From a virus (Duplodnaviria; Caudoviricetes): 61,446 nt of DNA. Position 1 is the first letter of the stretch; each line of letters starts with the position of its first letter. The notes under the pieces were generated by a model. The model saw only the letters and a program-made list of their open reading frames with translations. It was not told where the DNA came from and did not search any database. The stretch is taken from positions 1-61,446 of the IMG/VR virus record IMGVR_UViG_3300036851_000232, one strand, 5' to 3'. Below, piece by piece: positions 6,607 to 54,431 of the stretch. Made by a program: the position numbers and the translations under genes.

Positions 6607-6830
6607 GCCGCGCCGCCTCTCCGCCGCTGCTGGGGTCGCCGGTAGGTGGCCCGGCGGCGGGCGATGCGGCACGGGCCGCAGTACAGGGCGGAGCCGTGGA
6701 CCGGTTCGCCGCAGGCGTTGCACGGGCCGCTGAACCGGATGGTGGCCCGGTCGTAGTCGCGGCGGGCGGCCTCGTTGGCGCGCGCGTACGCGTTCCACGC
6801 GGCCTGGGTGGCCGGGTCGAGGCGGGTCAC
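6603..6830 (-). CDS. Hypothetical zinc-finger protein (CNACG...YCGPCR)
   Basis: GTG at 6830 coupled to RuvC stop. Confidence 0.6.
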   Translation of the reverse strand: MTRLDPATQAAWNAYARANEAARRDYDRATIRFSGPCNACGEPVHGSALYCGPCRIARRRATYRRPQQRRRGGAA

Positions 6831-7513
6831 GTCGTCACTCCCTCCGGCCAGTCGACGGCGTTGAGTGCCTTGCGGTGCTCGGCGGGCATCGGCGCGATCG
6901 GCATCCCGAGCCGGTCGCAGCCCATGGCGCACAGGATCAGCGCGTCGGCCTCGTCGTTGCTGACCACCATGAACGCGGTGAAGCGACGCACCGCGGCGGC
7001 GAGCACCTCATCTTTCCCGGCGTTCCCCCGCCCGGTCGCGTACTTGGCGCGGGTCTGCGGTGATGCGACGGCCAGCAGGCAGCCGCGCCGGTCCAACGCT
7101 TCCGTGATGAGCCACCACAGCCCGCCGAGCTGATGTACGGCGTTGCCGCGGCTGCCGAACGACGGCCCTTCGACAACGACCAGCGCGTCAAGGTCGGTGA
7201 AGTCGAGGACGCTGTCGCGGATCCAGCGGAGCCGCTCGTAGCCGACCATGCGGCCGGGTGGCCGGAGGCGGTCGACCCAACCGGTGGAGCAGGCGATCCC
7301 GGTACTGGTGAGACTGAGGTCGAGGCCATACACGCGGGTGGGGGCCCCGCCCCCGGAGTTGCCGCGTCCCCGGGGGGGTGGGTCCGCGGTTGTGCTCGAC
7401 GGGGGCGGGGCTGTCCCGGCCAAGCCCTTAACCGGGACGTGGTGGGCCCGACCGGCGTCAGGGGCGTCACTGGCGGGTAGGGCCGTTTCGGGGAGGGGCA
7501 GCGGGCCGGTCAC
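6827..7513 (-). CDS. RuvC-like Holliday junction resolvase
   Basis: GLDLSLTSTG, VVVEG, KYATGRGNAGKDEV, NDEADAL motifs; low-complexity N-terminal extension, start uncertain. Confidence 0.88.
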   Translation of the reverse strand: MTGPLPLPETALPASDAPDAGRAHHVPVKGLAGTAPPPSSTTADPPPRGRGNSGGGAPTRVYGLDLSLTSTGIACSTGWVDRLRPPGRMVGYERLRWIRDSVLDFTDLDALVVVEGPSFGSRGNAVHQLGGLWWLITEALDRRGCLLAVASPQTRAKYATGRGNAGKDEVLAAAVRRFTAFMVVSNDEADALILCAMGCDRLGMPIAPMPAEHRKALNAVDWPEGVTT

Positions 7514-7884
7514 GATGCCACTCCCGGCTCGGTCGGGGCGGGAAGGACGGGTCGCCACAGGTAGCATTCATCGCCATTGGCCCACCGGTATTCGATGCGG
7601 AACGTGCCTGAGGGGGGCCGGTACGGCACGTCGAAGCCGGTGCATTCCATGGGGTAGATATCGGCGGTAATGAATGCCCCGACGTTGCAGAACGTCAGCG
7701 GAGGGCTGTCGTGCTGCGGTTGGCCGTCCTCGTCGTAGTCCTGGCGGCAGTGCGGCCGGTCGTCGTACGACACCGTGGACATGTCGGTGTTGCGGAACGG
7801 GCAGCACCATTCGAGGTGCATGCTGTCCTGTTCGAGGACGAGGGTCATGGTGTGGCCGTCGTCGTGCCACGTCGGTTCGCTCAT
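7510..7884 (-). CDS. Hypothetical protein
   Basis: ORF track; coupled overlaps. Confidence 0.6.
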   Translation of the reverse strand: MSEPTWHDDGHTMTLVLEQDSMHLEWCCPFRNTDMSTVSYDDRPHCRQDYDEDGQPQHDSPPLTFCNVGAFITADIYPMECTGFDVPYRPPSGTFRIEYRWANGDECYLWRPVLPAPTEPGVAS

Positions 7885-8051: not shown

Positions 8052-8299
8052 CGCAGCCTCCCGGCGGGGCATTGAGTGTCCAATTCGGGGACCCGCAGGA
8101 CAGGGGCGTAGTCGCGGGTGGTGGTGATGAACGCGACGCCGTGGACGCAGATGAGGGAGAGGTTGGGGAACCGGTTGATGTGCTGGTACACCTCGACCTT
8201 GTCCGGTTTCTGCGCGTGGACGCCTTCGATGTCTTGCAGGGTGGACGTGCAGCCGGTGAGCGCCAGCGCAGTCAGCGCAACGAGGATGAGGCGGGTCAC
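8048..8299 (-). CDS. Small lipoprotein
   Basis: MTRLILVALTALALTGC lipobox; AGGAGGA RBS. Confidence 0.7.
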   Translation of the reverse strand: MTRLILVALTALALTGCTSTLQDIEGVHAQKPDKVEVYQHINRFPNLSLICVHGVAFITTTRDYAPVLRVPELDTQCPAGRLR

Positions 8300-14535: not shown

Positions 14536-14772
14536 TCAGCTCTCCCACACCCAGTAGCCGGGCCACCGGACCTCACCGAGATCAACACCGTTGACTTCTG
14601 ACTGCTGCTGGAGCTGAAGAGCTACGACCATGCGCAAGATCGACGTCGCTCGATCATCGGAGGCAAAGAAATCAGCGATGGCCAATTCGGTGCCCTCGTG
14701 GTTGATCCATGTGTGCTCCAACAGCGCACCCACGAGACGCCGGTACTGCTCGACTAGCTCAGTCGTGGTCAT
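14536..14772 (-). CDS. Hypothetical protein
   Basis: ORF track; coupled to ParB-DUF4326 gene. Confidence 0.6.
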   Translation of the reverse strand: MTTTELVEQYRRLVGALLEHTWINHEGTELAIADFFASDDRATSILRMVVALQLQQQSEVNGVDLGEVRWPGYWVWES

Positions 14773-15758
14773 TGATCAGCCCTCGCCTTCAGCACGTCGG
14801 CGTGGCAGGGCTCAGGGGCGCACCAGCAACCGAGTGCCTTGCCGCGAAGGGTGTCGAGCTTGGCTGCGAGGCTTGGCTTGTGTGGCAGGTAGTGGACCTC
14901 GTAGTTGCGGATGACCGTGTCGCGGTCGCCGTCCTTGCCCATCTCGAACGGGTTGCCCCAGACGGTCTGCCGATCAACGCGCACGTAGAGCCCGGCGGAG
15001 TCGGCCCAGGCGATGAGTCCGTTGTGGTCACCGCGGAGGGTGACCACGATGGTTTCACCATTGCGGAGTCTTTTTAGCAGGTGGCGTTCTTCAGGGGACC
15101 AGTCGGCGAAGATGCGTTCCTCGCGGATCTCTTCGAGGATCTGCTCACAGTCAACGGGAAGGTCTTGGGCGGCTTGGCGCAGCAACTCCTCGGTTAGGTG
15201 CGCAGTTATATTCGCCTGAATATCGTTGCGCACCTGAGCTTCGCTGATGTCCAGGTGGCCGCCGATCTTGCGCGTCGACCAGCCTGCTCGCTGCAACAGC
15301 ATGGCCTTCACCTGGCGCAGTAGTTTCCGTCGTTCTGTCAGTGGAGAGAGCCATCTGCTGACGGTGGGCTGGCTGATCCCGAGCCACTTGGCGAGATCAC
15401 GCTGCGACGTGTTGACGTTCCGCCGGGCTTCTTCAAGTGCGATCTGCTCGAGGTCGCGCGTGCTCATGCGGTCGCCGTGCCGAGTCGAGAGGGATGCGGC
15501 GTACACCTTCACCGACGGCGCGGTGGCAGGCACGTCGTGCTCTTCGATAGCGATGTGGTCGAGACCTGCCTGCTGGTGTGCTCGCAGGCGGTGCATTCCG
15601 TCTAGGAGCCGATTTGTGCCGCGCTCTATGACGATGGCTGGGAACTGTGCGCCAGCTGCGAGTGCGTCGGCGTATCTGTCGACCGTGGCTGATGACCACG
15701 AGGACCGCGGATAGATGTCCAGGTCGATAACGACCTCTGTGAGACGCATATCGGTCAC
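14769..15758 (-). CDS. ParB/Srx-like N-terminal domain + HTH(s) + DUF4326-like C-terminal domain
   Basis: LLDGMHRLRA (ParB-N); SQRDLAKWLGISQPTVSRWL and STRKIGGHLDISEAQV (HTHs); VDRQTVWGNPF...LRGKALGCWCAPEPCHADVL (DUF4326 signature). GTG at 15758 with AGGAGG RBS. Confidence 0.8.
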   Translation of the reverse strand: MTDMRLTEVVIDLDIYPRSSWSSATVDRYADALAAGAQFPAIVIERGTNRLLDGMHRLRAHQQAGLDHIAIEEHDVPATAPSVKVYAASLSTRHGDRMSTRDLEQIALEEARRNVNTSQRDLAKWLGISQPTVSRWLSPLTERRKLLRQVKAMLLQRAGWSTRKIGGHLDISEAQVRNDIQANITAHLTEELLRQAAQDLPVDCEQILEEIREERIFADWSPEERHLLKRLRNGETIVVTLRGDHNGLIAWADSAGLYVRVDRQTVWGNPFEMGKDGDRDTVIRNYEVHYLPHKPSLAAKLDTLRGKALGCWCAPEPCHADVLKARADQ

Positions 15759-15892
15759 GACGCGGCCTCCTGACCGGTGGCATCGAACATCCGCCGCAAC
15801 GTGCGCGCCTGCTCTTCGGTGATCTCGGGCGAGTCCGCGAGCTGCGCGTCGAGCCACTGCTCCTCGCGGGCGCGCGCCTCAGCGGCGGTCAC
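15755..15892 (-). CDS. Small hypothetical protein (45 aa)
   Basis: Own translation MTAAEARAREEQWLDAQLADSPEITEEQARTLRRMF...; coupled. Confidence 0.55.
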   Translation of the reverse strand: MTAAEARAREEQWLDAQLADSPEITEEQARTLRRMFDATGQEAAS

Positions 15893-15986: not shown

Positions 15987-16259
15987 TCATGCCGCCGGTT
16001 CCTCGTCCGTCTCGCCGTCGTCGAGGACGGTGAAGAGCTTTTCGAAGCCGAGATGGGGGAAGGCGCGGAGGACGGCGGCGATGAACTCGCCTCCGGGCCG
16101 CTGGTCCCGGTTGCGGATCCGGCCGACGGTGGTCTTGGCCACGCTGAGCTGGCGGGCGACTTCGGCGTCGGTGGTCCAGCCCCGGGCGAGGCACGCGACC
16201 TCGAAGACGTCGATGTTCAATATGACGCCTGCGGCCACTGTTAGTCCTCTCATGGTCAC
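15987..16259 (-). CDS. Cro-like XRE HTH protein, first gene of leftward lytic operon
   Basis: TDAEVARQLSVAKTTVGRIRNRDQRPG HTH; divergent from repressor. Confidence 0.8.
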   Translation of the reverse strand: MTMRGLTVAAGVILNIDVFEVACLARGWTTDAEVARQLSVAKTTVGRIRNRDQRPGGEFIAAVLRAFPHLGFEKLFTVLDDGETDEEPAA

Positions 16260-16273
16260 CTACCGTGTGGAAT

Positions 16274-16396
16274 GTTGCGCATGGGCTACAAAGTAGCCGT
16301 TGCGTGCACGCGACGCAACCACCTGGGGAAAGAAATGTCAGTGCCTCTAACAGGACGAGGTCGCGTGTGTGCGTTACCGTGTTGCGTGTACGCGCC
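16274..16396. promoter_or_regulatory. Immunity switch operators (about 16-bp palindrome GTTGCGTGCACGCAAC-like, 3-4 copies)
   Basis: GTTGCGCATGGGCTAC 16274, GTTGCGTGCACGCGAC 16299, GTCGCGTGTGTGCGTT 16360, GTTGCGTGTACGCGCC 16381, between divergent HTH genes. Confidence 0.65.
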
Positions 16397-16410
16397 GAAG
16401 GGGAGACGCG

Positions 16411-16785
16411 ATGCCTGCACGCCCGCCAAGTCCGTGGGCCGGATACGTCCGCGCCCTTCTTGACACCCGGTTCGCCGGCAACGGGGCTGCCCTCGCGGCC
16501 GAGGTCGGCGTTGGTCGGTCAGCGGTCAGCCGGTGGCTGCGCGGGGCCATCCCCCGCATCGAGCATGTCCGAGCCGTTGCGCAACTCACCGGTGATCCGC
16601 TGATCGTGCTGCTGCGTTTGGCCTACGGGATTGAGTCCGAATCGGCGATGACGCCGGAAGAAGCGATCCAGGCCGATGAGCATCTCGACCAGGCCGCGAA
16701 AGAGGTTCTGCTCGCGTTGTACCGCCAGCTCCGCGAAAAATACGGCTGGGATCCGTCGAACCGGGCACACCGCACAGCGGTCTGA
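16411..16785 (+). CDS. CI-like immunity repressor (XRE HTH)
   Basis: GAALAAEVGVGRSAVSRWLRGAIP HTH; GAAGGGGAG RBS before ATG 16411; divergent from Cro-like gene. Confidence 0.82.
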   Translation: MPARPPSPWAGYVRALLDTRFAGNGAALAAEVGVGRSAVSRWLRGAIPRIEHVRAVAQLTGDPLIVLLRLAYGIESESAMTPEEAIQADEHLDQAAKEVLLALYRQLREKYGWDPSNRAHRTAV

Positions 16786-16957: not shown

Positions 16958-17059
16958 CGGCTTCCCTGACCCCTCGTGAGAACGGAATCCCCCACCCGGA
17001 GAGCTAACGACGCCCGGCCATAGCGCGTTACGGCCCGACACCGGTTCTTTACCTTCGGT

Positions 17060-17302
17060 TCACGCGCCGCGCGGCCCGAGGATCGCGCTTTCGATCTGGT
17101 GGAACGCGTCCACCCGGCCCTGGTCGGTGGGCGGGGCAGCGGCGACGACTCGGGCAATCACACGGAGGATCACGTACGCGTCGGCGGGCGGAAGCGCATC
17201 GACCATGCGGGCGGCCCGGTCCGCGGCCGTCCGGTCCTGCTTGTAGTGCGGCCAGGACGCGGGCCAGTTCGGGTGCGCCGGTTGGGCCGGTTGCGTGGTC
17301 AT
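17060..17302 (-). CDS. Hypothetical protein downstream of GntR regulator
   Basis: AGGAGAGG RBS; ORF track. Confidence 0.65.
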   Translation of the reverse strand: MTTQPAQPAHPNWPASWPHYKQDRTAADRAARMVDALPPADAYVILRVIARVVAAAPPTDQGRVDAFHQIESAILGPRGA

Positions 17303-17316
17303 GGGGTGGTCCTCTC

Positions 17317-18075
17317 CTAGAGGTCGGAGCCGTAGAGCAGCCGGACCCGGGTCGCGTCGGAGACGGCACGCAGCACCTCGAGCCGCTGGCCGTCGTCGGT
17401 CGAGGTGATCCGGGTGGTGTCAAGGACGGCGGCACCGGGCGGCAAGTCAAGCGCGGCAGCTTCGCTAGGGGTGACGGGGCGGGCCCTGACCTGTTCGGTG
17501 TACCGGCCGGGGCGGTACCCGGCGTCGGTGAGCGCTTGGTAGATCCCGCCGGGCAGGAACACCGGCTCGGCGAGCGGTGTGCCGCCCGCGACGCTGGCCG
17601 GTATCCAGGAGGTGGTGAGCTGCGCGGGTTGCCCGTCGGCGTGCATGGTGCGGTACCGGCACACCGCAGGGCCGTCAAGGCGCAGTGCCTTGGTCACGTC
17701 GGCCGGTACCTCGTCAAGCGGTACCACGTCCACGTCATCGAGCCGTACCTGCGGTTCCATGCCGGCGCGGGTGACGGCCACCGACCAGGGCCCGCCCGCG
17801 ATGGCGCCGTTCGCGGCGGCTGCGTGCCGGGAGGTGCGGAGTTCGATGGGCCGGACGTCACGGACGACCGTGGACTGCCGTTCGTTGCCGCCGCGATGCC
17901 GGGCGATGAGGCCTTCCGCTTCGAGTTCCCGGTAGGCGCGGCGGACGGTTTCGCGGGCGGCGCCGTGCTTGCGGGCGAGCTCGGCTTCGCTGGGCATCTG
18001 CCCGCCGGGACCGAGTTGGGCGGCGAGGGCGCGCAGGTTGGCGGCGATCTTGGCCCACGTGGGGGTGTCGGGCAC
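17317..18075 (-). CDS. GntR/HutC-family regulator with UTRA domain (KorSA/TraR-like transfer repressor)
   Basis: MPSEAELARKHGAARETVRRAYRELEAEGLI wHTH; UTRA-type C-terminus (RPVTPSEAAALDLPPGAAVL..TR); GTG 18075 with GGAGG; divergent from the transfer genes. Confidence 0.88.
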   Translation of the reverse strand: MPDTPTWAKIAANLRALAAQLGPGGQMPSEAELARKHGAARETVRRAYRELEAEGLIARHRGGNERQSTVVRDVRPIELRTSRHAAAANGAIAGGPWSVAVTRAGMEPQVRLDDVDVVPLDEVPADVTKALRLDGPAVCRYRTMHADGQPAQLTTSWIPASVAGGTPLAEPVFLPGGIYQALTDAGYRPGRYTEQVRARPVTPSEAAALDLPPGAAVLDTTRITSTDDGQRLEVLRAVSDATRVRLLYGSDL

Positions 18076-18114
18076 CGGCTGCGCACCTCCGTTCACCCGT
18101 TCGTCGTGGGGTGC

Positions 18115-18164
18115 TTGACGATCCCATGCTGACGGGGGACCATCCCATTGTCTAGACCGGTACC
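18115..18164 (+). promoter_or_regulatory. Putative transfer-operon promoter and GntR operator
   Basis: TTGACG(18115)-N17-GACCAT(18138); GTCTAGAC palindrome 18150-18157 followed by CGGTACCG. Confidence 0.5.
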
Positions 18165-18182
18165 GAATGAGGGAGGCCCGCC

Positions 18183-18974
18183 GTGTCTCACGCCGGTACC
18201 GGTACCGCCGAACCCCAGGGCCGGTCGGCGCGCGGGTCAACACCCGATGCGCGGGCGGTGCCCGGTACGCCGGCCGGTCCTGGCCGGTACCGGGACCACG
18301 ACTGGTGGAAGATCACCCTTCGGGCCGTGGCCGGTACCGCCGCCGTCGTGGCCTCGTTCGTGTTCCTGGTTGACCTGGCGCGGGCGACGGGCTGGCCGGG
18401 ATGGACCGCGTACCTGCTGCCACTCTCGCTGGACGCGCTCGCGGCGGCGGCGTGGCGGATCTACGTGACCTGCGGCCGGGACCGGTTCGCCCTGTGGTGC
18501 GGTATCGGTACGACCGGGGCGACGCTGGCGGGGAACGCGGTGTCGCACCTGATCGGTACCGGGCACGTCGCGCCGGGCTGGTTGCTGGTCGCGACGGTGG
18601 GTGCGGTGCCGGCGATGAGCTTGGCGCTGGTGATCCACCTGACCGCGCCACCGAGGCTGCTGGACGCAGGTGCTGCTAGTCCCAGTCCGGCTGGGAGTTC
18701 GCTGGTAGTTGAGCGCGACGGTGCCGGCGGTCGGGGCGGGCCGCGGCCGGGGGGGATCGCCGCAGCGGGTCGGACCGCCGGCACCACAAGCCAGCGTAGC
18801 GACGACCAGCTGCTCGCCGAGATCCGCGCGCTCGGCCTCGAGCAGGTCGGGGCGGACAAGCTGACCGAGCCGCTCGGCATCAACAAGACCAGGGCGGTCA
18901 GGTTGCGGAAGCTGCTCGCCGCCGAGCTCGTACCGGCCAGCGGGAACGGACACACAGATGGGAGCACGCCATGA
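18183..18974 (+). CDS. DUF2637/Spd-like membrane protein (4 TM + C-terminal HTH-like region)
   Basis: ASFVFLVDLARATGWPGWTAYLLPLSLD...TLAGNAVSH...VGAVPAMSLALVIHL pattern of actinomycete plasmid spread proteins; GAGGGAGG RBS. Confidence 0.75.
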   Translation: MSHAGTGTAEPQGRSARGSTPDARAVPGTPAGPGRYRDHDWWKITLRAVAGTAAVVASFVFLVDLARATGWPGWTAYLLPLSLDALAAAAWRIYVTCGRDRFALWCGIGTTGATLAGNAVSHLIGTGHVAPGWLLVATVGAVPAMSLALVIHLTAPPRLLDAGAASPSPAGSSLVVERDGAGGRGGPRPGGIAAAGRTAGTTSQRSDDQLLAEIRALGLEQVGADKLTEPLGINKTRAVRLRKLLAAELVPASGNGHTDGSTP

Positions 18975-19174
18975 CCCCCGCGCTTTTCGTGATCATGATG
19001 ATGTTGGGTGCCGCGATCTTCGTGTCGATACGCGCCAAGCAGACGAAGATCTGGGAACTCGTCATGCTCGGCACATTCGGCGCGCTACTCGGCCAAGTAA
19101 CGATCGGCTCCGCGTACCTGTCCGGGCTGAGCAGCGTGTCCACGTCCCTGTTCGCCGCGATCGGCCTCGGCTGA
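18971..19174 (+). CDS. Small two-TM membrane protein (Spd-like accessory)
   Basis: Hydrophobic 67 aa ORF coupled between Spd-like gene and translocase. Confidence 0.7.
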   Translation: MTPALFVIMMMLGAAIFVSIRAKQTKIWELVMLGTFGALLGQVTIGSAYLSGLSSVSTSLFAAIGLG

Positions 19175-19180
19175 CACCCG

Positions 19181-20743
19181 GTGACGGCCGAACTGCAGGA
19201 ACGCGCCGGTACCGTCGCCGTCATGCCACTGCCCGTTGATCCGCCGGGTGAGGACACCGAGCCGGTACCGGCGGGCAGGCTGGGGCTGGTTCGGCGCGGC
19301 TGCGGTTGGTACGCGGGTTGTGTGCGCAACTACTTCCGACGCGGTTGCTCCGAGGCGTACCAGGCGTGGCGGTCCCGGGTGGACCTGTGGGCCGAGGGTA
19401 GCCATCGACTCAGGTCCGACTGCGAGATGTACACGAACGACCGGGTGGAGTGGCGGGAGAGGGAGAAGCAGCGCCGCAAGCAGCTGGAGAGGGAGGACGA
19501 GGCAGCTGTCCGGAAGGCGCTCGAGGAGAAGCAGCCGGTACCGAAGCCGTCGAAGTTCAAGCCGCGGGACCCGTGTCGCGAGCTGCATCGGCAGAGGATC
19601 ATGCGCAAGGCCGTGTCGCCGGTTGCCGGCGTCATCGGCCCTGCCCTAGCGGCGGTCGCCCTGGTATTCGGCGGCCCGGCCCTGATCCAGCAGGCACTGG
19701 TCGCCGCGCACGGTACCGCCCTCGCGACCGGATTCGCGGTTGCTGCTGCGATGGTTCTCGCGGTGGCCGCAGTGACGGTGTTGTCGGTGTTCGGGCAGGT
19801 CCGCAGCGAGCCAGCGGTACCAGTCGATCCCGGCGGGGAGGAGGACGCGACACCGTGGTCCCGGATCACCATCGGGAGGTTCCTCGACGACGGTTCGCCG
19901 ATCGAGATCCCGTTCGGCGACCATGTGCTGATCGCCGGTGCCACCGACGCGGGGAAGTCCAACCTTGTCAACGTTGTCATCTCGAAGATCGCCCCGTTCC
20001 CGGAGGTCGAGCTGTACGGCATCGACTTGAAGGGCGGCGTGGAACTCGGCCCGTGGGAGAACGTCCTCGTGGAGCTGGCCGAGGACGACAAGGCTGCGGT
20101 CGCGTTGCTGCGGCGGCTCAGTGAGGAGATGGACCGCCGGTACCGCACGCTCCGCGCTGCCGGGCGGAAGAACTGGCGGCTGCAGGACGGCCGATTCATG
20201 AAGGTGATCGTGGATGAGTTGGCCGAGTTGCCGAAAGCGGGCGTGGATCTCCTTACCCGGTTGGCGCTGCTCGGCCGCGCCGCCGGGATCTCTTTGGTGT
20301 GCGCCACACAACAGCCCGAGGTGGCGGTGATTCCGCAGCAGGCAAGGGGTCAGCTCCGTACCGTGCTCGGTCTGCGGGTGGAGCGGGCTGAGCAGGCCCG
20401 GCAGGTGTTCGGGGAGCGGGCGACCCGCGAGGGATGGGATCCGGCGTCGCTGGACCCGACGAAGCGGGGATCGCTGCTGGTCCGGTCGAAGTGGTGCACG
20501 GAGCCGCGGCCGGGCCGGTCGACGCGGATCACGGACGGCGAGGTCCGCGCACGTGCGAAGGAGTACGCGAGGACGCCACGCGAATATGTGGCCGAGGATC
20601 GGCCAGCCGGCGAGGGGGAAGAGCGGCGGTGCTTGTACTGCGGGAAGCCGCCCACGGATCCGCGCGCGAAGTACTGCTCGCCCGCGCATCGGAAAGAGCA
20701 TTGGCGACGCTTGCGACGCTTCGGCCCAGATGGGGGTTCCTGA
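19181..20743 (+). CDS. traB: TraB-like FtsK/SpoIIIE DNA translocase
   Basis: Two TM helices, HVLIAGATDAGKS Walker A, IDLKGGVEL, VIVDELAEL Walker B, GRAAGISLVCATQQP; gene context GntR-spd-tra. Confidence 0.85.
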   Translation: MTAELQERAGTVAVMPLPVDPPGEDTEPVPAGRLGLVRRGCGWYAGCVRNYFRRGCSEAYQAWRSRVDLWAEGSHRLRSDCEMYTNDRVEWREREKQRRKQLEREDEAAVRKALEEKQPVPKPSKFKPRDPCRELHRQRIMRKAVSPVAGVIGPALAAVALVFGGPALIQQALVAAHGTALATGFAVAAAMVLAVAAVTVLSVFGQVRSEPAVPVDPGGEEDATPWSRITIGRFLDDGSPIEIPFGDHVLIAGATDAGKSNLVNVVISKIAPFPEVELYGIDLKGGVELGPWENVLVELAEDDKAAVALLRRLSEEMDRRYRTLRAAGRKNWRLQDGRFMKVIVDELAELPKAGVDLLTRLALLGRAAGISLVCATQQPEVAVIPQQARGQLRTVLGLRVERAEQARQVFGERATREGWDPASLDPTKRGSLLVRSKWCTEPRPGRSTRITDGEVRARAKEYARTPREYVAEDRPAGEGEERRCLYCGKPPTDPRAKYCSPAHRKEHWRRLRRFGPDGGS

Positions 20744-20860
20744 GCGTGGGCAGCTTCTCTGATGGAGATGCGTCGCATGCGTCGCACCGCAGGTCAGGGG
20801 GCTTGCGATGCGTCGCATCATGCGTCGCTTCGCTGGAAGCGTCGCATCATGCGTCGCATC
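20704..20860. repeat. clt-like repeat cluster at traB 3' end (ATGCGTCGC x5, AAGCGTCGC x1, two inverted copies)
   Basis: Direct copies at 20768, 20777, 20808, 20820, 20837 (variant), 20849; GCGACGCT at 20704 and 20713. Confidence 0.85.
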
Positions 20861-20864
20861 TGTC

Positions 20865-21305
20865 GTGATTCCGTCGTGGCTGGTCTCAGCAGATGGCATC
20901 CTCGACCGTGTCCTGTCGCCGCTGGATCCGCTGGTAGCCGACCGGTGGCACTGGTTGCCGGTGCTGGCCGTGGCGTGGTGGACGGTGCGCTGGTTCTCGT
21001 ATCGGCCGGGTCTGTGGCTGGCGATGCTCCGCTGCCGGTTGCTGCGCCGGGGTGGTGAGCGGACCGCCCTGTACCGGTGGTTCGACGGGTCGGGGAGGTT
21101 GCGGTATGTGGGGATCTCGAATGATGTGCGGCGGCGCACCGGTCAGCATGCGGCGGGGAAGTGGTGGTGGTTCGAGGTGCGGTCCTGCACCGTGGAGTGG
21201 TTCGACACTCGGGGTGCGGCGTTGGCGGCGGAGCGCGCTGCGATCCGGGCGGAGCGGCCCCGGCATAACGTGGTCCACAACGGGCGACGGAGGGCGGCGG
21301 CGTGA
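20865..21305 (+). CDS. GIY-YIG nuclease with hydrophobic N-terminal segment
   Basis: TALYRWFD..GRLRYVGIS...RRRTGQH...KWWW...AAERAAIRAERPRHN; start uncertain. Confidence 0.78.
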   Translation: MIPSWLVSADGILDRVLSPLDPLVADRWHWLPVLAVAWWTVRWFSYRPGLWLAMLRCRLLRRGGERTALYRWFDGSGRLRYVGISNDVRRRTGQHAAGKWWWFEVRSCTVEWFDTRGAALAAERAAIRAERPRHNVVHNGRRRAAA

Positions 21306-21574
21306 CCGAGGTCGAGCGCGGCGATCTGGTGGATGCGGCGTACGCGCTGTTGATGGCGGCGATCCTGCTGCGCGACATGGCCGGCGCGATGCCCGCCAAG
21401 ACGTTCGTGGCGATGCCGCCGGATATTGCGGACCGGCTGATGTGGACTGGTTATCAGGACGCCTTCGACCGCCTGCCGGCCGATGTTCGGGGCGAGGCGC
21501 GTGCGCGGGTGTTAGCTGACCCGGCGGTTGTCGCGGCGCGTGCGCTTGATGCTGCGAACGGTCTCCGGGCATGA
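21302..21574 (+). CDS. Hypothetical protein, last gene of transfer operon
   Basis: GGAGGG RBS; GTGA coupling. Confidence 0.65.
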   Translation: MTEVERGDLVDAAYALLMAAILLRDMAGAMPAKTFVAMPPDIADRLMWTGYQDAFDRLPADVRGEARARVLADPAVVAARALDAANGLRA

Positions 21575-21576
21575 CG

Positions 21577-21623
21577 AAAGCCGCCCCGCTCCCCGGAGGA
21601 GGAGAGCGAGGCGGCGCTTGTTG
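21577..21623. terminator. Stem-loop between convergent transfer and lysis operons
   Basis: AAA-GCCGCCCCGCTCCCC...GGAGAGCGAGGCGGC-GCTTGTT imperfect hairpin. Confidence 0.55.
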
Positions 21624-21631
21624 GTAACGAG

Positions 21632-21754
21632 TCAGTACCCGCCGGTGGCGATCGTGGATGTGAGAATCAGCCCGATCAGCAGCGCGATACAGAACGCGGT
21701 CACTTGCCAGGCGGCGAGGTGTTCGCGGTGTGGTACGCGGTGGCGGGCGCGCAT
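21632..21754 (-). CDS. Small membrane peptide (40 aa)
   Basis: Own translation MRARHRVPHREHLAAWQVTAFCIALLIGLILTSTIATGGY. Confidence 0.45.
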   Translation of the reverse strand: MRARHRVPHREHLAAWQVTAFCIALLIGLILTSTIATGGY

Positions 21755-21757
21755 GAG

Positions 21758-22111
21758 TCACACGTCGATTCGTACCCCGGTGGTGACGGCGACGAGGATG
21801 AACAGCATCACCACGATGATGAGCAGCAGGATCTCGACGGTGGTGATCCCGGCGTCGTCCGCGGGGGGTCGGGGGGCGTGCCGGGCGCGGCTGGCGGTGG
21901 CCTGCGCCTGGGCGTATTCGCGGGTCGCGTAGCCGGCGGCGGTGACGGCCGCGGTGATGATCAGCCCAGCGAGTTCCGGATCAAGGTCGTAGCCGACGAT
22001 GCGGCGCGTCGCGAAGATCAGCAGCGTCGCCGCGGCGCCGCCACCGAACACGGCGGTGACCTTGCGGGTGGGGGCGAGGCTGGGCTGGGAGGCGACGTGC
22101 CGGCCGGTCAC
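21758..22111 (-). CDS. Holin-like membrane protein
   Basis: PTRKVTAVFGGGAAATLL...AAVTAAGY plus third TM; downstream of endolysin. Confidence 0.65.
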   Translation of the reverse strand: MTGRHVASQPSLAPTRKVTAVFGGGAAATLLIFATRRIVGYDLDPELAGLIITAAVTAAGYATREYAQAQATASRARHAPRPPADDAGITTVEILLLIIVVMLFILVAVTTGVRIDV

Positions 22112-22386
22112 GCGGCACCTCTTGTCGCGAAGTACGGTTTCATCTCGCAGTCGGGGCGGTACCCGCAGCGCGGATCACGGACGGTCCCGCCGCCGGCCGT
22201 GATGGTCATGTGCTCGCATGCGTAGCCCGAGGCTCGGATCACCTCGACGGGCTCGAACTCCCGGTAGCACTCATATATCCGCATGGATGCCTGGTCCTCG
22301 ATGTTCTCCACCCAGCGTGTCGGCGCGTGGAGCCGGCGGGTCAGCCAAGCGCAGAAGATCAACGCGGTCGCGCGGGCGTACTTCAT
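22108..22386 (-). CDS. Hypothetical protein
   Basis: Start MKYARA after GGAGGA. Confidence 0.5.
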   Translation of the reverse strand: MKYARATALIFCAWLTRRLHAPTRWVENIEDQASMRIYECYREFEPVEVIRASGYACEHMTITAGGGTVRDPRCGYRPDCEMKPYFATRGAA

Positions 22387-22643
22387 CAGTCCTCCACCCG
22401 TTCGGGCCAGTGCCACGTGCCGGGACGGCGGTCCTCGTCGTGCTCGCAGTCGTTGAAAAACAGCCCGGTCGGGTTGAGGACGACCAGTGAGCACAGGTCG
22501 CCGGGGACGTCCTCCGTGTTGACGTACGGCCCGCCTATGTCGCAGACCTCAGCGATCACGGCCGCGCGGCACGTGCTGGTGTACTCCCCACCAGGGGTGC
22601 CGTAGCTGACGTAGTGGACGATTCTTCCGATGCTTGGCCTCAT
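22386..22643 (-). CDS. Conserved phage hypothetical protein (PSIGRIVHY...W.WP type)
   Basis: Recognisable MxPSIGRIVHY...RAAVI...TWHWPER pattern. Confidence 0.75.
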   Translation of the reverse strand: MRPSIGRIVHYVSYGTPGGEYTSTCRAAVIAEVCDIGGPYVNTEDVPGDLCSLVVLNPTGLFFNDCEHDEDRRPGTWHWPERVED

Positions 22644-23485
22644 GGCTGCGGCTCCGCAGCGGACTCGGCGGCCGGTGTCTCGTTCTTCACCGTCACGGTG
22701 ACGTCGATCGCCGCGTCGGCGAGGAGCTGCCGCACCTGATCCTGGGTGAGGTCGTTCGCGTCGTCCTCCGCGATCGCCTTGACCGCCACGACGGAGTTCG
22801 CGAACGTCATGTCGAGCAGGTGCTTGATCGCCGGTGGGGGCCGCTCACCCCAGATCTCCCCGGCCGACGGGCTCCAGAAGCGCACTGGGCGTCCCCAGAA
22901 ATGAGCGTCAAACGCGGCCCAGTCGGCGGCGTCCCACTTCTCCGGTCCGGTAGTCGACACGGATACCTCCGGTTGCTTGGTCAGGGTGCCGCCCCGGACG
23001 AGCGCGGTCACGGCCGCGCCGGGGCATTCGGTGGGTGCGGCTCGCACGTCGTTGTGCGTCTTCACGGCCGTCGCGCCGGGATAGCGCCTGAGGAGCCGGG
23101 TGGTGCGCCAGTCCCGGAACGCCTGCACCATCGCATCGGTGGGTTTGTCGCCCGTGCCGAGGATCCACAGGCAGGCGGTGTAATCGGCGTTCGACTGGGT
23201 GCCACCGTTCGCCGCGGTGCGGCAGTCGAGGCCACGGAGCTCCCACACGCAGCCGTGCCAGTCGATGCCGACGCCGTACGCGATGTCGGACCAGCCCTTT
23301 GAGTCCATGTGGTACGCCTGCCAGCCGCGGAGCTGCGACGCGACCTGCGCGTCGGACAGCCCGACCAGCTTCGCATCGGAGCCGGGCCAGTGGCAGGCGA
23401 CGCCGAGCGGCCGCCCGGTCGGGAACGAGGTGCAGCCGCGGCGGGCGCGTAGTCCGGCGTCGGCCCTACTCCGGTACGTCGTCAC
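22640..23485 (-). CDS. Endolysin, N-acetylmuramoyl-L-alanine amidase (Amidase_2/PGRP-like)
   Basis: HW, QAYHMDSKGWSDIAY, ELRG, HNDV..TECPG zinc-amidase motifs; start GTG 23485 inferred. Confidence 0.85.
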   Translation of the reverse strand: MTTYRSRADAGLRARRGCTSFPTGRPLGVACHWPGSDAKLVGLSDAQVASQLRGWQAYHMDSKGWSDIAYGVGIDWHGCVWELRGLDCRTAANGGTQSNADYTACLWILGTGDKPTDAMVQAFRDWRTTRLLRRYPGATAVKTHNDVRAAPTECPGAAVTALVRGGTLTKQPEVSVSTTGPEKWDAADWAAFDAHFWGRPVRFWSPSAGEIWGERPPPAIKHLLDMTFANSVVAVKAIAEDDANDLTQDQVRQLLADAAIDVTVTVKNETPAAESAAEPQP

Positions 23486-23579
23486 CGGGCTCGTCTTCGT
23501 GGTCGCCCGCGAGTTCGTCGGCAGAGACGGTGCCGGACTCGACCTCGTCGGGGGTCGGACTGGTCGGTTGTTCGGACAT
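23466..23579 (-). CDS. Small acidic peptide (37 aa)
   Basis: GAGGAGG RBS; MSEQPTSPTPDEVESG... Confidence 0.5.
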   Translation of the reverse strand: MSEQPTSPTPDEVESGTVSADELAGDHEDEPGDDVPE

Positions 23580-23595
23580 GGGGCGTTCCTCCTCG

Positions 23596-24309
23596 TCAGT
23601 CTTGGACGCACACCCACCACTGCTCCCCACCGGGAGCCGGGTCCGGGTCGCGTTGCTCGCCGTGATAACCCTCTGGACACGGCGGGCCTGCCGGGCCTGG
23701 ATCTCCGGGATCGCCCTTGCCGCCTTTCTCGCCGCGACATTCGCCATGAGCGTCGCAATAGGTAGCGACGGCTGCGGCGATCTGTTCGTCAGACGGCGGG
23801 GGTCCCTGCGATCCAGGTGTCCCATCGACACCGTCGCGGCCGTCGACACCGGCCCTGCCGTCCTGACCGGTCGATCCTCGGCATTCGCCGCGAGCGTTGC
23901 AGAACGTGGCGACCGCGGCGGCGACCTGCGCGGGCGACGGCCCATCCCCGGCGGGGCCGCGGCAACCGCTCCGCGGCGCGCAATAGGCGGCCACAGCGGC
24001 GGCCACCTGCGCGGCGCTCGGGGGTGCCCCTTCGGGGCCGCGGATGCCGCGCAGTCCAGGTTCACCGGGAGGTCCGTCCGCCCCGACGACGATCTCCGGG
24101 TTGCGGGCAATCTGCTCGGCGGGCGGGGTGACCGGCTCGTCGCCGCGCGTCTCCGTCGCCCGCTGCTCCTGTGTGAGCGCCGTGTACAGGGCGGCGATCT
24201 GCTCGTCCTGGCCGCGTTGCTGCCACGCCACCCACAAGGTGAGCACGGCCATGGCGATCACGACGACGCCGATGACCCGCAGCCCCGACAGCCTCCGATG
24301 CGCGATCAT
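23596..24309 (-). CDS. Membrane-anchored collagen-like (G-X-Y) protein of lysis region
   Basis: N-terminal TM; GXY runs alternating with three 'QVAAAVAxYC..R.EC.G' repeats. Confidence 0.75.
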   Translation of the reverse strand: MIAHRRLSGLRVIGVVVIAMAVLTLWVAWQQRGQDEQIAALYTALTQEQRATETRGDEPVTPPAEQIARNPEIVVGADGPPGEPGLRGIRGPEGAPPSAAQVAAAVAAYCAPRSGCRGPAGDGPSPAQVAAAVATFCNARGECRGSTGQDGRAGVDGRDGVDGTPGSQGPPPSDEQIAAAVATYCDAHGECRGEKGGKGDPGDPGPAGPPCPEGYHGEQRDPDPAPGGEQWWVCVQD

Positions 24310-24836
24310 TCGCATTCCTTCGGCAACATGGGCAGCGGCGTTCCGGTGCGTTTCTGATCGAGGACGCGGCGTTCTTTGGCGAGCTGGGTCCGCCCGGCTA
24401 GGTACTCCTCGGTGATCCGCTGCCTGTCCGCCGGGTCAGCGGCGAGGAGGTCTTGCAGCCATTTGCTGATGCTGTCCCGGTCCTCGCGGGCGTTTTCGCG
24501 ACCCTCGTCGGCGATCCGGTCCCGCACCCGCAGGGCATCGGTGAAGTCGTCGACGAACCGGGTCTGGCAGGCGGTGACGCGGGCCTGCTGCCGTTCGAAC
24601 ACGATCCCCTGCACGACGGTGGCGACCGCGAGCAGCAGCACGATCACGCCGAGCGCCCGCTCACCCAGCCGCCCCGACCGGTGGTGCCGCACCCGGGTCG
24701 GGGGTTCGCCGTCCACGACCACTTCCCTGATCTCACGGATCTCGCGCCGTAGCCGCCCGACGAGGAACCCGATGACGAGGCCGGCGGTGAACCATGCGAT
24801 CGAGTTCGCCACTTCGGTGAGGACTTCACCGCTCAT
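24306..24836 (-). CDS. Two-TM membrane protein (lysis region)
   Basis: ORF track; hydrophobic helices. Confidence 0.7.
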   Translation of the reverse strand: MSGEVLTEVANSIAWFTAGLVIGFLVGRLRREIREIREVVVDGEPPTRVRHHRSGRLGERALGVIVLLLAVATVVQGIVFERQQARVTACQTRFVDDFTDALRVRDRIADEGRENAREDRDSISKWLQDLLAADPADRQRITEEYLAGRTQLAKERRVLDQKRTGTPLPMLPKECE

Positions 24837-25026
24837 CGGAGTCGCCCCCGCCCCGGCGGGCCCGGTCGGCGGATAGGAACAGGTACCCGGCGATGATCCC
24901 GAACACCCCGTCGACGCCCACGGACGGCTCGTAGCCCTCGACGACGAACTTGGCGACGAAATTAGCGACCCAGACCATTGTCACTACAACAATGATCCCG
25001 TAGCGGACCCGGTCATCCATGATCAC
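24826..25026 (-). CDS. Small two-TM membrane protein (possible holin component)
   Basis: ORF track. Confidence 0.65.
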   Translation of the reverse strand: MIMDDRVRYGIIVVVTMVWVANFVAKFVVEGYEPSVGVDGVFGIIAGYLFLSADRARRGGGDSDER

Positions 25027-25153
25027 CGCCGGGTGTCGGGAGACCGGTCACCGCAGCATCGGCGGCCCGAAAGTAGGCGAGGAAAGAGTGCACCCCGTCA
25101 CCCCTTCAGCGGAAACGGCCTCGCCCGCGCATGTGGCGGGTCATGATGGCGGG

Positions 25154-25399
25154 ATGCGAACGCACGGCAAGGGCGCGACATACCGGAAAGGCGGATGCCG
25201 GTGCCCCAAATGCCGCGCGGAGAACACGGAGGACACTAGGACCGCCCGGCAGAAGCGGGCGGAGCGCCTGGCCGAGGACCCTTCGCTGGCGCCACATGGC
25301 AGCCGGTCCACCTACGACAACTGGGGTTGCCGCTGCGAGGAGTGCGTTGTCGCGCACTACGCCGCGGCGGTGGTGGCGTACCGCGCTCCGCGTGGCTAG
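25154..25399 (+). CDS. Antisense small protein with two HG...Y...GCRC..C zinc-binding repeats
   Basis: THGKGATYRKGGCRCPKCR and PHGSRSTYDNWGCRCEEC; CATGAT 6 nt before ATG. Confidence 0.72.
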   Translation: MRTHGKGATYRKGGCRCPKCRAENTEDTRTARQKRAERLAEDPSLAPHGSRSTYDNWGCRCEECVVAHYAAAVVAYRAPRG

Positions 25400-25863
25400 G
25401 TTCCGGCCTTGGTCCGGTAGAACCCGGAGGCGGGGAAGTCCAGCGGCAGATCGGTGCCGTCAGTAGTCGCGACGAACCCGAAGTGGACGAGCGGGGTTAT
25501 CTCCGCGTCGGTGCTGAGAGTTGTGTCCGGCTTGTAGCAGAGCAGCGCCTTGCCGAGGGTGTTGTTCAGCACTCCACCTGCTGCGATCCACACCTGGTTG
25601 GCGATAGAGATGTCAACCCAGTTGTTGGTGTCGTCCACCGTGATCGTCGCCGTGGTGACCGTCTTCCGGGCGTAGTTGGTGAAATCCGCCTCATCATTCG
25701 ACGCGGCGAGCAGCGCCGCCAGATCGTCATGATCGGCGAGGGTGTCGTCGGACTGGAGACCTGCGGATTTCAGCAGCACAACCACGAGACCGTCGCTGGC
25801 GCCGGTCAGCTGGCAGTAGTGCCGGATCCTGCCGCGGGCGACGTTCAAGATGCCGTCGGCCAT
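25396..25863 (-). CDS. Virion/minor tail protein
   Basis: Position; EADFTNYARKT motif typical of phage tail-associated proteins. Confidence 0.65.
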   Translation of the reverse strand: MADGILNVARGRIRHYCQLTGASDGLVVVLLKSAGLQSDDTLADHDDLAALLAASNDEADFTNYARKTVTTATITVDDTNNWVDISIANQVWIAAGGVLNNTLGKALLCYKPDTTLSTDAEITPLVHFGFVATTDGTDLPLDFPASGFYRTKAGT

Positions 25864-53701: not shown

Positions 53702-54035
53702 CGGTCCACCTCACAGCGCCCGGGCGTGGCGGCGCTGCGCCAACAGCAGCACCCGCCTGATCCGCCGGTCCACGCACCCGGCGTGCGCCCGGCCCGGCCG
53801 GGCCGTGCGCTGGCATGTGCCGCACACCCTGCGCGGCCTCACGCCGCCTCCACCAACGCCCGGCGCAACACCGCGCCCGGCAACGGCAGCCATCGCAGCG
53901 GGGCCCGGCGGTCCAGTGCCTCGCACCGGGACCAGCACAGCGACGACACCGCCACCCGGTCTCACCGCCTCGCCTGGAACCGGGGCCCGGCCCCGGCAAC
54001 GTGGGGAACGACAGGCCGGGCCCCGGGTGTGTGGG

Positions 54036-54302
54036 TTACTCTTCGCCGCCCGTCTCGTCCTCCGCCGGTATCGGCGCGGCGACGGGCTCGGGCTCGAACG
54101 TCAACGTGTATGCCCGGCCGGGCTCGAACCTGTCCGCGACATCGCCGCGCAGCAGCATCCGCAGCTCAAGCGACGGGGTCGCCGCCGCCCAGTCCTTGTT
54201 CCGCCCGTCCTGGTAATCCGGGCAGAAACCCACGGTGGCCTGCCGCTCGGTGCCGTAGGTGAACTCCTGCTTCAGGTTGCACACCACCTTCGCGGTGATC
54301 AC
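54036..54302 (-). CDS. Conserved phage hypothetical protein
   Basis: ITAKV...NKDWAAATPS...FEPGRAYTLTF; GAGGAGG RBS. Confidence 0.75.
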   Translation of the reverse strand: MITAKVVCNLKQEFTYGTERQATVGFCPDYQDGRNKDWAAATPSLELRMLLRGDVADRFEPGRAYTLTFEPEPVAAPIPAEDETGGEE

Positions 54303-54357
54303 AGCGCCTCCTCGGGCACGCGGAAGCCCCGGCACTCGGGAGGAAGACCGGGGCTAG

Positions 54358-54431
54358 TGGCGGGTGTCGGAGTCGAACCGACCTGGCTCGGCGTATGAAA
54401 CCGTTCAGCACGACCGGTGCTGCTACCCGCT
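54358..54431 (-). tRNA. tRNA-Met(CAU)-like, initiator-like/degenerate
   Basis: Folds as AGCGGGT/ACCCGCC acceptor, CAGC/GCTG D-stem, TTCATAC anticodon loop, GTCGG-TTCGACT-CCGAC T-arm. Confidence 0.75.

Follow-up and report, generated by a model that had tools for sequence, protein, structure and literature searches.

TraB-type conjugation is known from actinomycete plasmids and from actinomycete integrative and conjugative elements (AICEs), and the 8-bp repeats within clt, the cis-acting locus for transfer, are read by the C-terminal winged-helix domain of TraB. The locus considered here lies in the genome of a tailed virus (Duplodnaviria; Caudoviricetes), the IMG/VR record IMGVR_UViG_3300036851_000232, which was analysed over its whole length of 61,446 nucleotides and is called the window in what follows. 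It is an array of short repeats at and over the 3' end of a gene for a TraB-like FtsK/SpoIIIE translocase and, on an evenly balanced judgement, it may serve as the cis-acting, clt-like protein-loading site of a TraR/membrane-protein/TraB cassette inside a tailed-phage genome.

The clt of pWTY27, as given in an excerpt of PMC3583192, takes in 16 bp within traA and the adjacent 159 bp, comprises four 7-bp direct repeats as well as inverted repeats and is footprinted by TraA; the same excerpt gives nine 9-bp direct repeats and two inverted-repeat pairs for the clt of pJV1, and one inverted repeat and three 5-bp direct repeats, in about 54 bp, for that of pIJ101 (PMC3583192). In an extract of PMC4447253, clt regions are presented as direct 8-bp repeats recognised by the cognate TraB, and traB and traR as a kil-kor pair (PMC4447253). 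According to these excerpts, clt function was proven for pWTY27, pJV1 and pIJ101 by deletion, electrophoretic mobility shift assays and footprinting, and clt deletions in pWTY27 are reported to alter transfer 10- to 1000-fold; the repeats of all three are unrelated in sequence to those of the window. Transfer that depends on a tra gene is also already known for a phage-related replicon of Streptomyces: in the excerpts of PMC3583192 and PMC4487206, conjugal transfer of pZL12, a Streptomyces plasmid-phage, calls for a major tra gene together with adjacent genes.

Plasmid pSVH1 (NC_007431.1) carries, in this order, a GntR gene on the minus strand, small open reading frames (ORFs) and SpdB2, TraB, a 229-bp gap and further ORFs, and the same order is found in the window. 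Over 265 aa, the motor of the window protein and pSVH1 TraB share 31% identity (E 5e-17), and the two GntR proteins are 32% identical over 247 aa (E 1e-25), so that by alignment and gene order the cassette is homologous and syntenic to traR-spd-traB of pSVH1. The k-mer cluster script, run on pSVH1 as a positive control, returned GACCCGG five times at 8147-8233 together with an inverted copy at 8249, and these repeats begin 5 bp after the traB stop (8142). Both replicons thus have a 90-110-bp array of 8-9-bp direct repeats, accompanied by inverted copies, at 5-25 bp from the stop codon. Direct repeats of 7-9 bp, with or without inverted copies, within about 200 bp at or over the 3' end of a tra gene were taken as the mark of a clt; the window has them, and on this comparison its array shares the place and layout of proven clt loci. 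Unlike pSVH1, the window has a quasi-palindromic motif (TGCGTCGCA, where pSVH1 has GACCCGGA), places two copies within the gene and four within the ORF that follows it, and has a translocase tail of the form CxxC..C..H; the replicon is a tailed phage instead of a 12.6-kb rolling-circle plasmid. The motif of the window also differs from those of pSVH1, pWTY27, pJV1 and pIJ101 alike. Two small plasmids of Streptomyces carry a trio of FtsK gene, small ORF and DUF2637 gene, and DUF2637 is a regular companion of TraB in such plasmids. In the collections of phages and plasmids, the best-matching proteins were the phage-borne or phage-plasmid-borne FtsK-like translocases of Streptomyces phage Gilgamesh and of related Streptomyces plasmids of about 130 kb (34-37% identity over the motor); these are proteins of 613-637 aa with a different C-terminus, and no GntR is annotated in the 4-kb flanks of either locus.

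The repeat array at the 3' end of the translocase gene

The array consists of six direct copies, on the plus strand, of a 9-bp unit (A[T/A])GCGTCGC, which occupy positions 20768-20857 as three pairs. ATGCGTCGC starts at 20768, 20777, 20808, 20820 and 20849, and AAGCGTCGC at 20837; the full spacing series is 9, 31, 12, 17 and 12, with 9, 12 and 12 within pairs. The first direct copy lies 25 bp 3' of the stop codon of the traB-like gene (20741-20743) and the six copies span 90 bp. Inside that gene, 7-13 codons ahead of its stop codon, GCGACGCT and GCGACGCTT are both found at 20704 and 20713; both of these inverted copies (20704-20721) become AAGCGTCGC when read on the minus strand, and TGCGACGCTTC (20712-20722) complements the fifth copy of the array perfectly over 11 nt. 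A preliminary description of this DNA had given the coordinates, copy number, pairing and within-pair spacing of the direct repeats and had placed two inverted copies in the last traB codons, and all of this holds on direct reading. It had also pointed to an element between the pairs, CCGCAGGTCAG, which is indeed present at 20787 but occurs once in the record, as a spacer and not a repeat, and overlaps the Shine-Dalgarno-like AGGGGG (20796-20801).

A feature absent from that description is that the repeat unit is a quasi-palindrome, TGCG-T-CGCA. Copies 1, 3 and 6 are 11-bp palindromes (ATGCGTCGCAT) phased 40 and 41 bp apart. Also absent from it is the overlap of copies 3-6 with the downstream ORF, which encodes a GIY-YIG nuclease: with ATG 20808 as its start, they fall within its opening 17 codons. 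Relative to this ATG, copies 1-2 occupy -40 to -23, the Shine-Dalgarno sequence -12 to -7 and copies 3-6 +1 to +50. The pairs fall in differing reading frames, which places the repetition at the level of the DNA and not of the peptide.

Counted in a record that holds about 76% of the phage genome, all five copies of ATGCGTCGC and all four exact copies of TGCGTCGCA lie inside the array, which is the outcome of the record-wide k-mer count proposed as a check in the preliminary description. On both strands WWGCGTCGC occurs 10 times, compared with 5.2 +/- 2.1 in shuffled sequences (3 of 100 shuffles reach 10), and this total is by itself not remarkable; eight of the 10 occurrences are, however, packed into 154 bp. 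With five copies per 100 bp the array is the tightest 8-mer cluster of the 61-kb record, against a maximum of three (71 runs) or two (29 runs) in 100 second-order Markov simulations, and this clustering confirms that the array is real. One-mismatch copies of TGCGTCGCA are not enriched over the record (31 found, 38.7 expected).

The copies are also visible in codon choice. The in-gene inverted copies encode W-R-R-L-R-R-F with the rare codons CGA (twice) and TTG, which make up 5.1% of Arg and 9.9% of Leu codons respectively in 21 confident genes, and the probability of this choice under the usage of the record is 3.6e-5. In the downstream ORF, the G+C content at third codon positions (GC3) is 0.60 in the first 20 codons, which hold copies 3-6, and 0.855 in the rest; the rare codons over these copies are CGT (twice), GCA (twice), GCT, GGA, TCA and TCT. 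The array is therefore real, unique in the record and constrained at the DNA level beyond coding needs.

These observations bear on the view that local duplication or slippage gave rise to the array as a by-product with no function, or that it is the relic clt of a cassette left unused by the phage. A single record and a single relative exist, too few to show conservation, and an excerpt of PMC13587820 speaks of FtsK-like phage genes to which no function is assigned, both of which fit such an origin. The spacing is nevertheless varied, the orientations are mixed, the next ORF retains copies in two different frames, and the traB-like gene retains others by means of rare codons; taken together this argues against simple slippage and for selection on the DNA, and we consider a by-product or relic unlikely.

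The translocase, its motor and its C-terminal tail

The translocase consists of an N-terminal region, two transmembrane-like segments (143-209), a motor (about residues 225-465) and a short, zinc-ribbon-like basic tail. It has the Walker A motif of an FtsK/SpoIIIE motor, hydrophobic stretches at 143-176 and 177-209 on the Kyte-Doolittle scale, as membrane anchoring would require, and a divergent partner gene of the GntR (kor/traR) type. Its best NCBIfam match is plasmid_TraB (NF041214), at 53.7 bits and thus below the cut-off of 800. An AlphaFold2 model of residues 205-520, built on a 51-sequence alignment, has a predicted local distance difference test score (pLDDT) of 88, with the motor above 95, and its top Foldseek match is the motor of Escherichia coli FtsK (2ius, E 5.6e-17). 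The record's own gene call begins at ATG 19427 and yields 438 aa; the only close relative, which lies on a 2234-bp contig (P0004) and is 72% identical to the window protein (P0001), is conserved from residue 2 of the 520-aa reading, for which reason the gene is probably 82 codons longer than annotated (19181-19426).

The tail is where this protein departs from TraB. After the motor there are 56 aa, compared with about 110 in pSVH1 TraB; the putative ligands C484, C487, C499 and H503, in a CxxC..YCSPAH pattern, are invariant in both sequences that have the tail (P0001 and P0004), and a zinc-knuckle-like loop and a terminal helix are predicted for it (pLDDT 83-88). A library-wide HMMER search gave 10625 hits at E <= 1e-3, of which the best 149 representatives were examined: all of them matched through the motor, a few alignments extend into the tail region, and none has CxxC...C..[CH] in its last 90 residues. 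Instead, a C-terminal tail family of about 50 aa that resembles a winged helix-turn-helix (wHTH) was found in 86 of the 149, and in 74 of the 101 that have at least 500 aa. The profile of this family was seeded on one relative (P0160) and converged at iteration 4, and the label wHTH-like accordingly rests on a sequence pattern, because the profile was re-seeded from that protein; neither P0001 nor P0004 matches it. A tail profile seeded with the C-terminus of pSVH1 TraB found no match among the relatives. A compact basic module in the place where relatives have their reader is what would be expected if reader and recognition sequence had been swapped together.

Loading site, operator or origin

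If the array is a clt-like loading site, a GntR/TraR-like repressor would hold the operon off through the GTCTAGAC/GGTACC box at 18150, and de-repression would lead to a membrane-anchored, FtsK-like hexameric motor made together with the DUF2637 and 67-aa membrane proteins. The eight TGCG-T-CGCA sites would be where this motor is brought to the double-stranded element, either by its zinc-ribbon/basic C-terminal tail, in place of a wHTH, or by a partner, for which the HTH-like end of the DUF2637 protein (its C-terminus) is one candidate, and the motor would then pump DNA across a septum or cell-cell contact. The identity of the binder, the loading of the motor by binding and the movement of the phage genome in this way are steps that we infer. 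The clt-like reading is favoured because a kor-tra cassette, the only strong array of the record at and over the 3' end of the translocase gene, and copies kept by rare codons are found together, a combination specific to proven clt loci and not one to be expected if the array were simply an operator of the following gene. The GntR protein was considered as the binder of the array and rejected, as a distinct box is its probable operator: GT-N-TA-N-AC is the operator consensus of the HutC subfamily, no such palindrome lies in the array, and the sole GT.TA.AC of the record is the GTCTAGAC at 18150, followed by GGTACC, in the divergent promoter, which would put the Kor/TraR operator elsewhere and make it distinct from the array motif. 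The traR-side intergenic region of pSVH1 likewise has repeated GGTAC(A/C) boxes.

Several findings weigh against the array being a clt-like site. The translocase lacks the C-terminal wHTH, a defining feature of TraB by which it reads its clt repeats. The tail that stands in its place has no relatives with demonstrated DNA binding: its zf-MYND match (17.7 bits) is below threshold, its sole match in the PDB, to a zinc ribbon, has E 0.65, and a search for shorter proteins with this tail found none. The motif is quasi-palindromic, which is typical of the operators of dimeric regulators, whereas the TraB repeats that were checked are asymmetric, and, in the manner of a regulatory site, four copies are intermingled with the Shine-Dalgarno sequence and start codon of the gene that follows. 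FtsK/SpoIIIE-like genes of Streptomyces phages are mentioned in the excerpt of PMC13587820 without a known role. The gene ends of the Gilgamesh type have no comparable repeat array, only coding proline-rich repeats; downstream scans of four metagenome loci related to P0005 (L019, L020, L023 and L024) gave mostly two-copy repeats, with one family of three copies; and of four plasmids with TraB, pSVH1 alone has its top 8-mer cluster directly behind traB. In the other three it lies in the DUF2637 gene of the same operon (two plasmids) or at the parA promoter (L032). Two adjacent units were found in 13 other viral contigs, which is about the chance number on the author's rough estimate, and an FtsK-like protein is encoded at none of these 13 loci and in none of the four whole records examined. 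As far as the available sequences go, comparative support is lacking.

Searches for relatives gave little with which to compare the locus. A profile search of viral and genome contigs with P0001, or with the alignment of P0001 and P0004, returned no relative, and searches of the viral contigs with two other proteins (P0005 and P0127) returned none either. With P0005, 11 loci were found in metagenome contigs, which belong to a different, wHTH-bearing subgroup; at one of them (L016), three copies of the 8-mer CGTGCACG begin 8 bp after the gene, at the contig end. Among the plasmid records it was further seen that the 18,052-bp 'plasmid' NZ_CP108178.1 (L030) is a head-to-tail dimer of a 9026-bp unit in which each gene is annotated twice.

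The preliminary description had taken the array for a clt with a new recognition sequence. The TraB-type motor, the pSVH1-like module, the match in place, size and make-up and the novelty of the motif all agree with this, and what does not fit is the lack of the wHTH reader, which lowers the case for a canonical TraB/clt pair more than the case for an array that works like one.

A possible, though doubtful, alternative is that the array regulates the downstream GIY-YIG gene, as an operator for a dimeric DNA-binding protein from another part of the phage genome or through RNA hairpins masking both Shine-Dalgarno sequence and start codon, which would keep a potentially toxic nuclease off until needed and would be compatible with a dual role alongside a clt. 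The quasi-palindromic unit, the three phased 11-bp palindromes, each with a weaker neighbour, and the way in which the copies flank the Shine-Dalgarno sequence and the ATG all suit such a role, and several HTH proteins are encoded by the record. As RNA, 20690-20870 folds at -93.2 kcal/mol (z = -4.0; none of 200 shuffles folds as well), with one hairpin over the Shine-Dalgarno region and another over the start codon; this strong single-strand fold is, however, not independent evidence, because it is the automatic outcome of a repeated palindromic unit. On the other side, the two copies kept by rare codons stand 87-104 bp upstream of the ATG, in the preceding gene, where a simple operator has no need of them. 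No other promoter region of the record has the motif, as the confinement of exact TGCGTCGCA copies to the array and the lack of enrichment of one-mismatch copies also indicate, and no sigma-70-like promoter was found in 17000-25500, with a scan that is weak for actinomycetes. A relative of the GIY-YIG protein was found at none of the 13 viral-contig loci with adjacent units. Two GIY-YIG domains, 49-55% identical to that of the window, were observed on 84-92-kb plasmids of Streptomyces and Embleya beside a GntR/UTRA regulator (6830-7528 of NZ_CP108500.1, L029; 6899-7978 of NZ_CP109578.1, L028), and in L029 the domain is fused to a GntR-type HTH in one 232-aa protein.

Also considered, and very unlikely, is that the array serves a plasmid-like prophage state, either as its iteron-type replication origin or as its partition centromere. 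Short phased repeat arrays are typical of iteron origins and of type-I/II centromeres, and the cluster at the parA promoter of the TraB-bearing Streptomyces plasmid L032 shows one such place for a top repeat cluster. An extrachromosomal prophage is conceivable, given that the record yielded no integrase. Another IMG/VR contig (L003, in G001) has, at 1925-2027, three inverted and three direct GCGTCGC cores about 50 bp apart, directly behind a gene for a D5-type primase; this 3+3 cluster has the core motif of the window, and its layout matches the left half of the array there. The two records share no protein, and L003 was for that reason not kept as a related array but treated as coincidence or convergence. 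In the window the array is flanked by the translocase and the GIY-YIG nuclease, with neither an initiator nor a ParA/ParB gene adjoining it; no ParA was found in the record, a ParB_N match of only 13 bits lies 5 kb off, and some 38 kb separate the polymerase/primase gene from the array. Next to the array, an AT-rich unwinding stretch is absent, and the cumulative GC skew has no turning point there. The gene absences are weak evidence on this question, because the record is 76% complete.

The island, its phage host and what would follow

The array belongs to an island of about 4.3 kb (roughly 17317-21574) that lies on the plus strand throughout except for the GntR gene, and is flanked by phage genes mostly on the minus strand; its features are collected in Table 1. 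The DUF2637 protein has hydrophobic segments at 44-68 and 129-155, and the start of its gene is uncertain, because the protein collection lacks this translation. A member of the 90%-identity cluster of the 67-aa protein (P0124) shares the 2234-bp contig with the TraB-like P0004. The GIY-YIG ORF also matches a PHROG endonuclease (1.3e-17), has a hydrophobic segment at 8-26, and its start at 20808 is that of the protein collection. For the 90-aa ORF, Pfam, PHROG and NCBIfam scans gave no family match.

Table 1. Features of the island and of the array within it, in window coordinates
Feature	Position	Strand	Details
GntR/UTRA (HutC-type) regulator, TraR/Kor-like, divergent from the transfer operon	17317..18243	-	Pfam GntR 4.4e-11, UTRA 1.7e-17
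Probable GntR operator, divergent promoter region	18150..18168	.	GTCTAGAC then CCGGTACCG
DUF2637 membrane protein with HTH-like C-terminus, first plus-strand gene of the island	18183..18974	+	Pfam DUF2637 22.9 bits (cut-off 22.8)
67-aa hydrophobic protein, Spd-like by position alone	18971..19174	+	Hydrophobic segment 1-23
TraB-like FtsK/SpoIIIE double-stranded DNA translocase, 520 aa	19181..20743	+	Pfam FtsK_SpoIIIE (PF01580) 2.6e-19
Tail coding region	20630..20722	+	C484-x2-C487...C499-x3-H503, then basic helix HRKEHWRRLRRF
Inverted repeat pair	20704..20721	-	AAGCGTCGC twice in the traB-like coding sequence, encodes RRLRR
Direct repeat array, proposed clt-like protein-loading site	20768..20857	+	Six copies, three pairs
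Shine-Dalgarno-like AGGGGG	20796..20801	+	6 nt ahead of ATG 20808, between repeat pairs 1 and 2
Membrane-anchored GIY-YIG nuclease ORF, 165 aa	20808..21305	+	Pfam GIY-YIG 5.5e-7, residues 88-151
90-aa ORF, possibly the last plus-strand gene of the island (uncertain)	21302..21574	+	Frame-specific GC3 signal to about 21400 only

The window is an entire, linear IMG/VR virus contig with a CheckV completeness estimate of 76%, and the stretch was found in one soil-metagenome DNA run and in no RNA run listed; at 80% likeness, only the identical contig of that run covers the array, and no variant was seen among its contigs. Terminase, portal, MuF-like protein, protease, capsid, tail tube and tape measure are encoded, as are RuvC-like and HNH nucleases, a polymerase/primase and several HTH proteins. 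The preliminary description had spoken of an element; with its terminase, portal, capsid and tail genes, this is a tailed-phage contig and not a plasmid or AICE. The integrase or recombinase and replication initiator that would mark an AICE or conjugative plasmid were not found on it, and virion genes are present instead. Tyrosine and serine recombinases (PF00589, PF07508) and ParA were not found in six frames, nor a Rep family among the ORF scans, in this record of about 76% completeness; with no rep, int or parA gene found, the suggestion that the module is complete in cis cannot be upheld. Against the phages of the collection the portal protein reaches no more than 53% identity, and among the collected plasmids it has no match, so that the phage is not of a known pZL12-type lineage.

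Other parts of the record carry repeats of their own. Next to a CI-like HTH gene (15987-16259, minus strand), the intergenic stretch 16260-16420 toward the plus-strand ORFs repeats a GTTGCG(C/T) box near 16274, 16299 and 16380, and contains the near-palindrome GTTGCGTGCACGCGACGCAAC as part of this set; these boxes look like the operator set of an immunity switch, which would suggest a temperate phage. A 362-aa protein encoded at 14769-15857 on the minus strand combines the weak ParB_N-like stretch (13 bits) with an HTH and a C-terminal DUF4326 (82 bits). Between the terminase gene and a tRNA-Met gene (54357-54431, minus strand), two 8-mers form clusters of three copies each within 53780-54100 (CGCCCGGC near 53786, CGGGCTCG near 54083), which may be a packaging or promoter region.

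Three things appear to be new at this locus: the sequence of the repeats, the exchanged tail of the TraB-like pump and a host replicon that encodes virions. Literature on Streptomyces phages, FtsK, TraB and phage-plasmids showed no clt in a phage among the matches listed, and no description of the motif was found in the literature on the motif together with clt. In its furthest extension, which is speculative and rather improbable, a tailed actinophage would have domesticated a complete Streptomyces-type conjugation cassette and would move its own double-stranded DNA between hyphae or across mycelial septa without virions; the pump would read the palindrome by its zinc-ribbon/basic tail, and the GIY-YIG protein, whose gene has its start codon within the site, would open circular or concatemeric DNA at the site for threading through the hexamer. 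We know of no DNA-opening step identified for TraB-type transfer.

If the array merely gates the GIY-YIG gene, it would be an ordinary operator. A compact 4.3-kb cassette with a candidate loading site in a virion-encoding genome nonetheless offers a testable handle on the unexplained FtsK-like genes of phages. Should the translocase bind the array, a new 9-bp recognition sequence would be defined, the recognition module of TraB-like pumps would prove to be swappable, from wHTH to zinc ribbon, and some phages would have a second, virion-independent route of spread.

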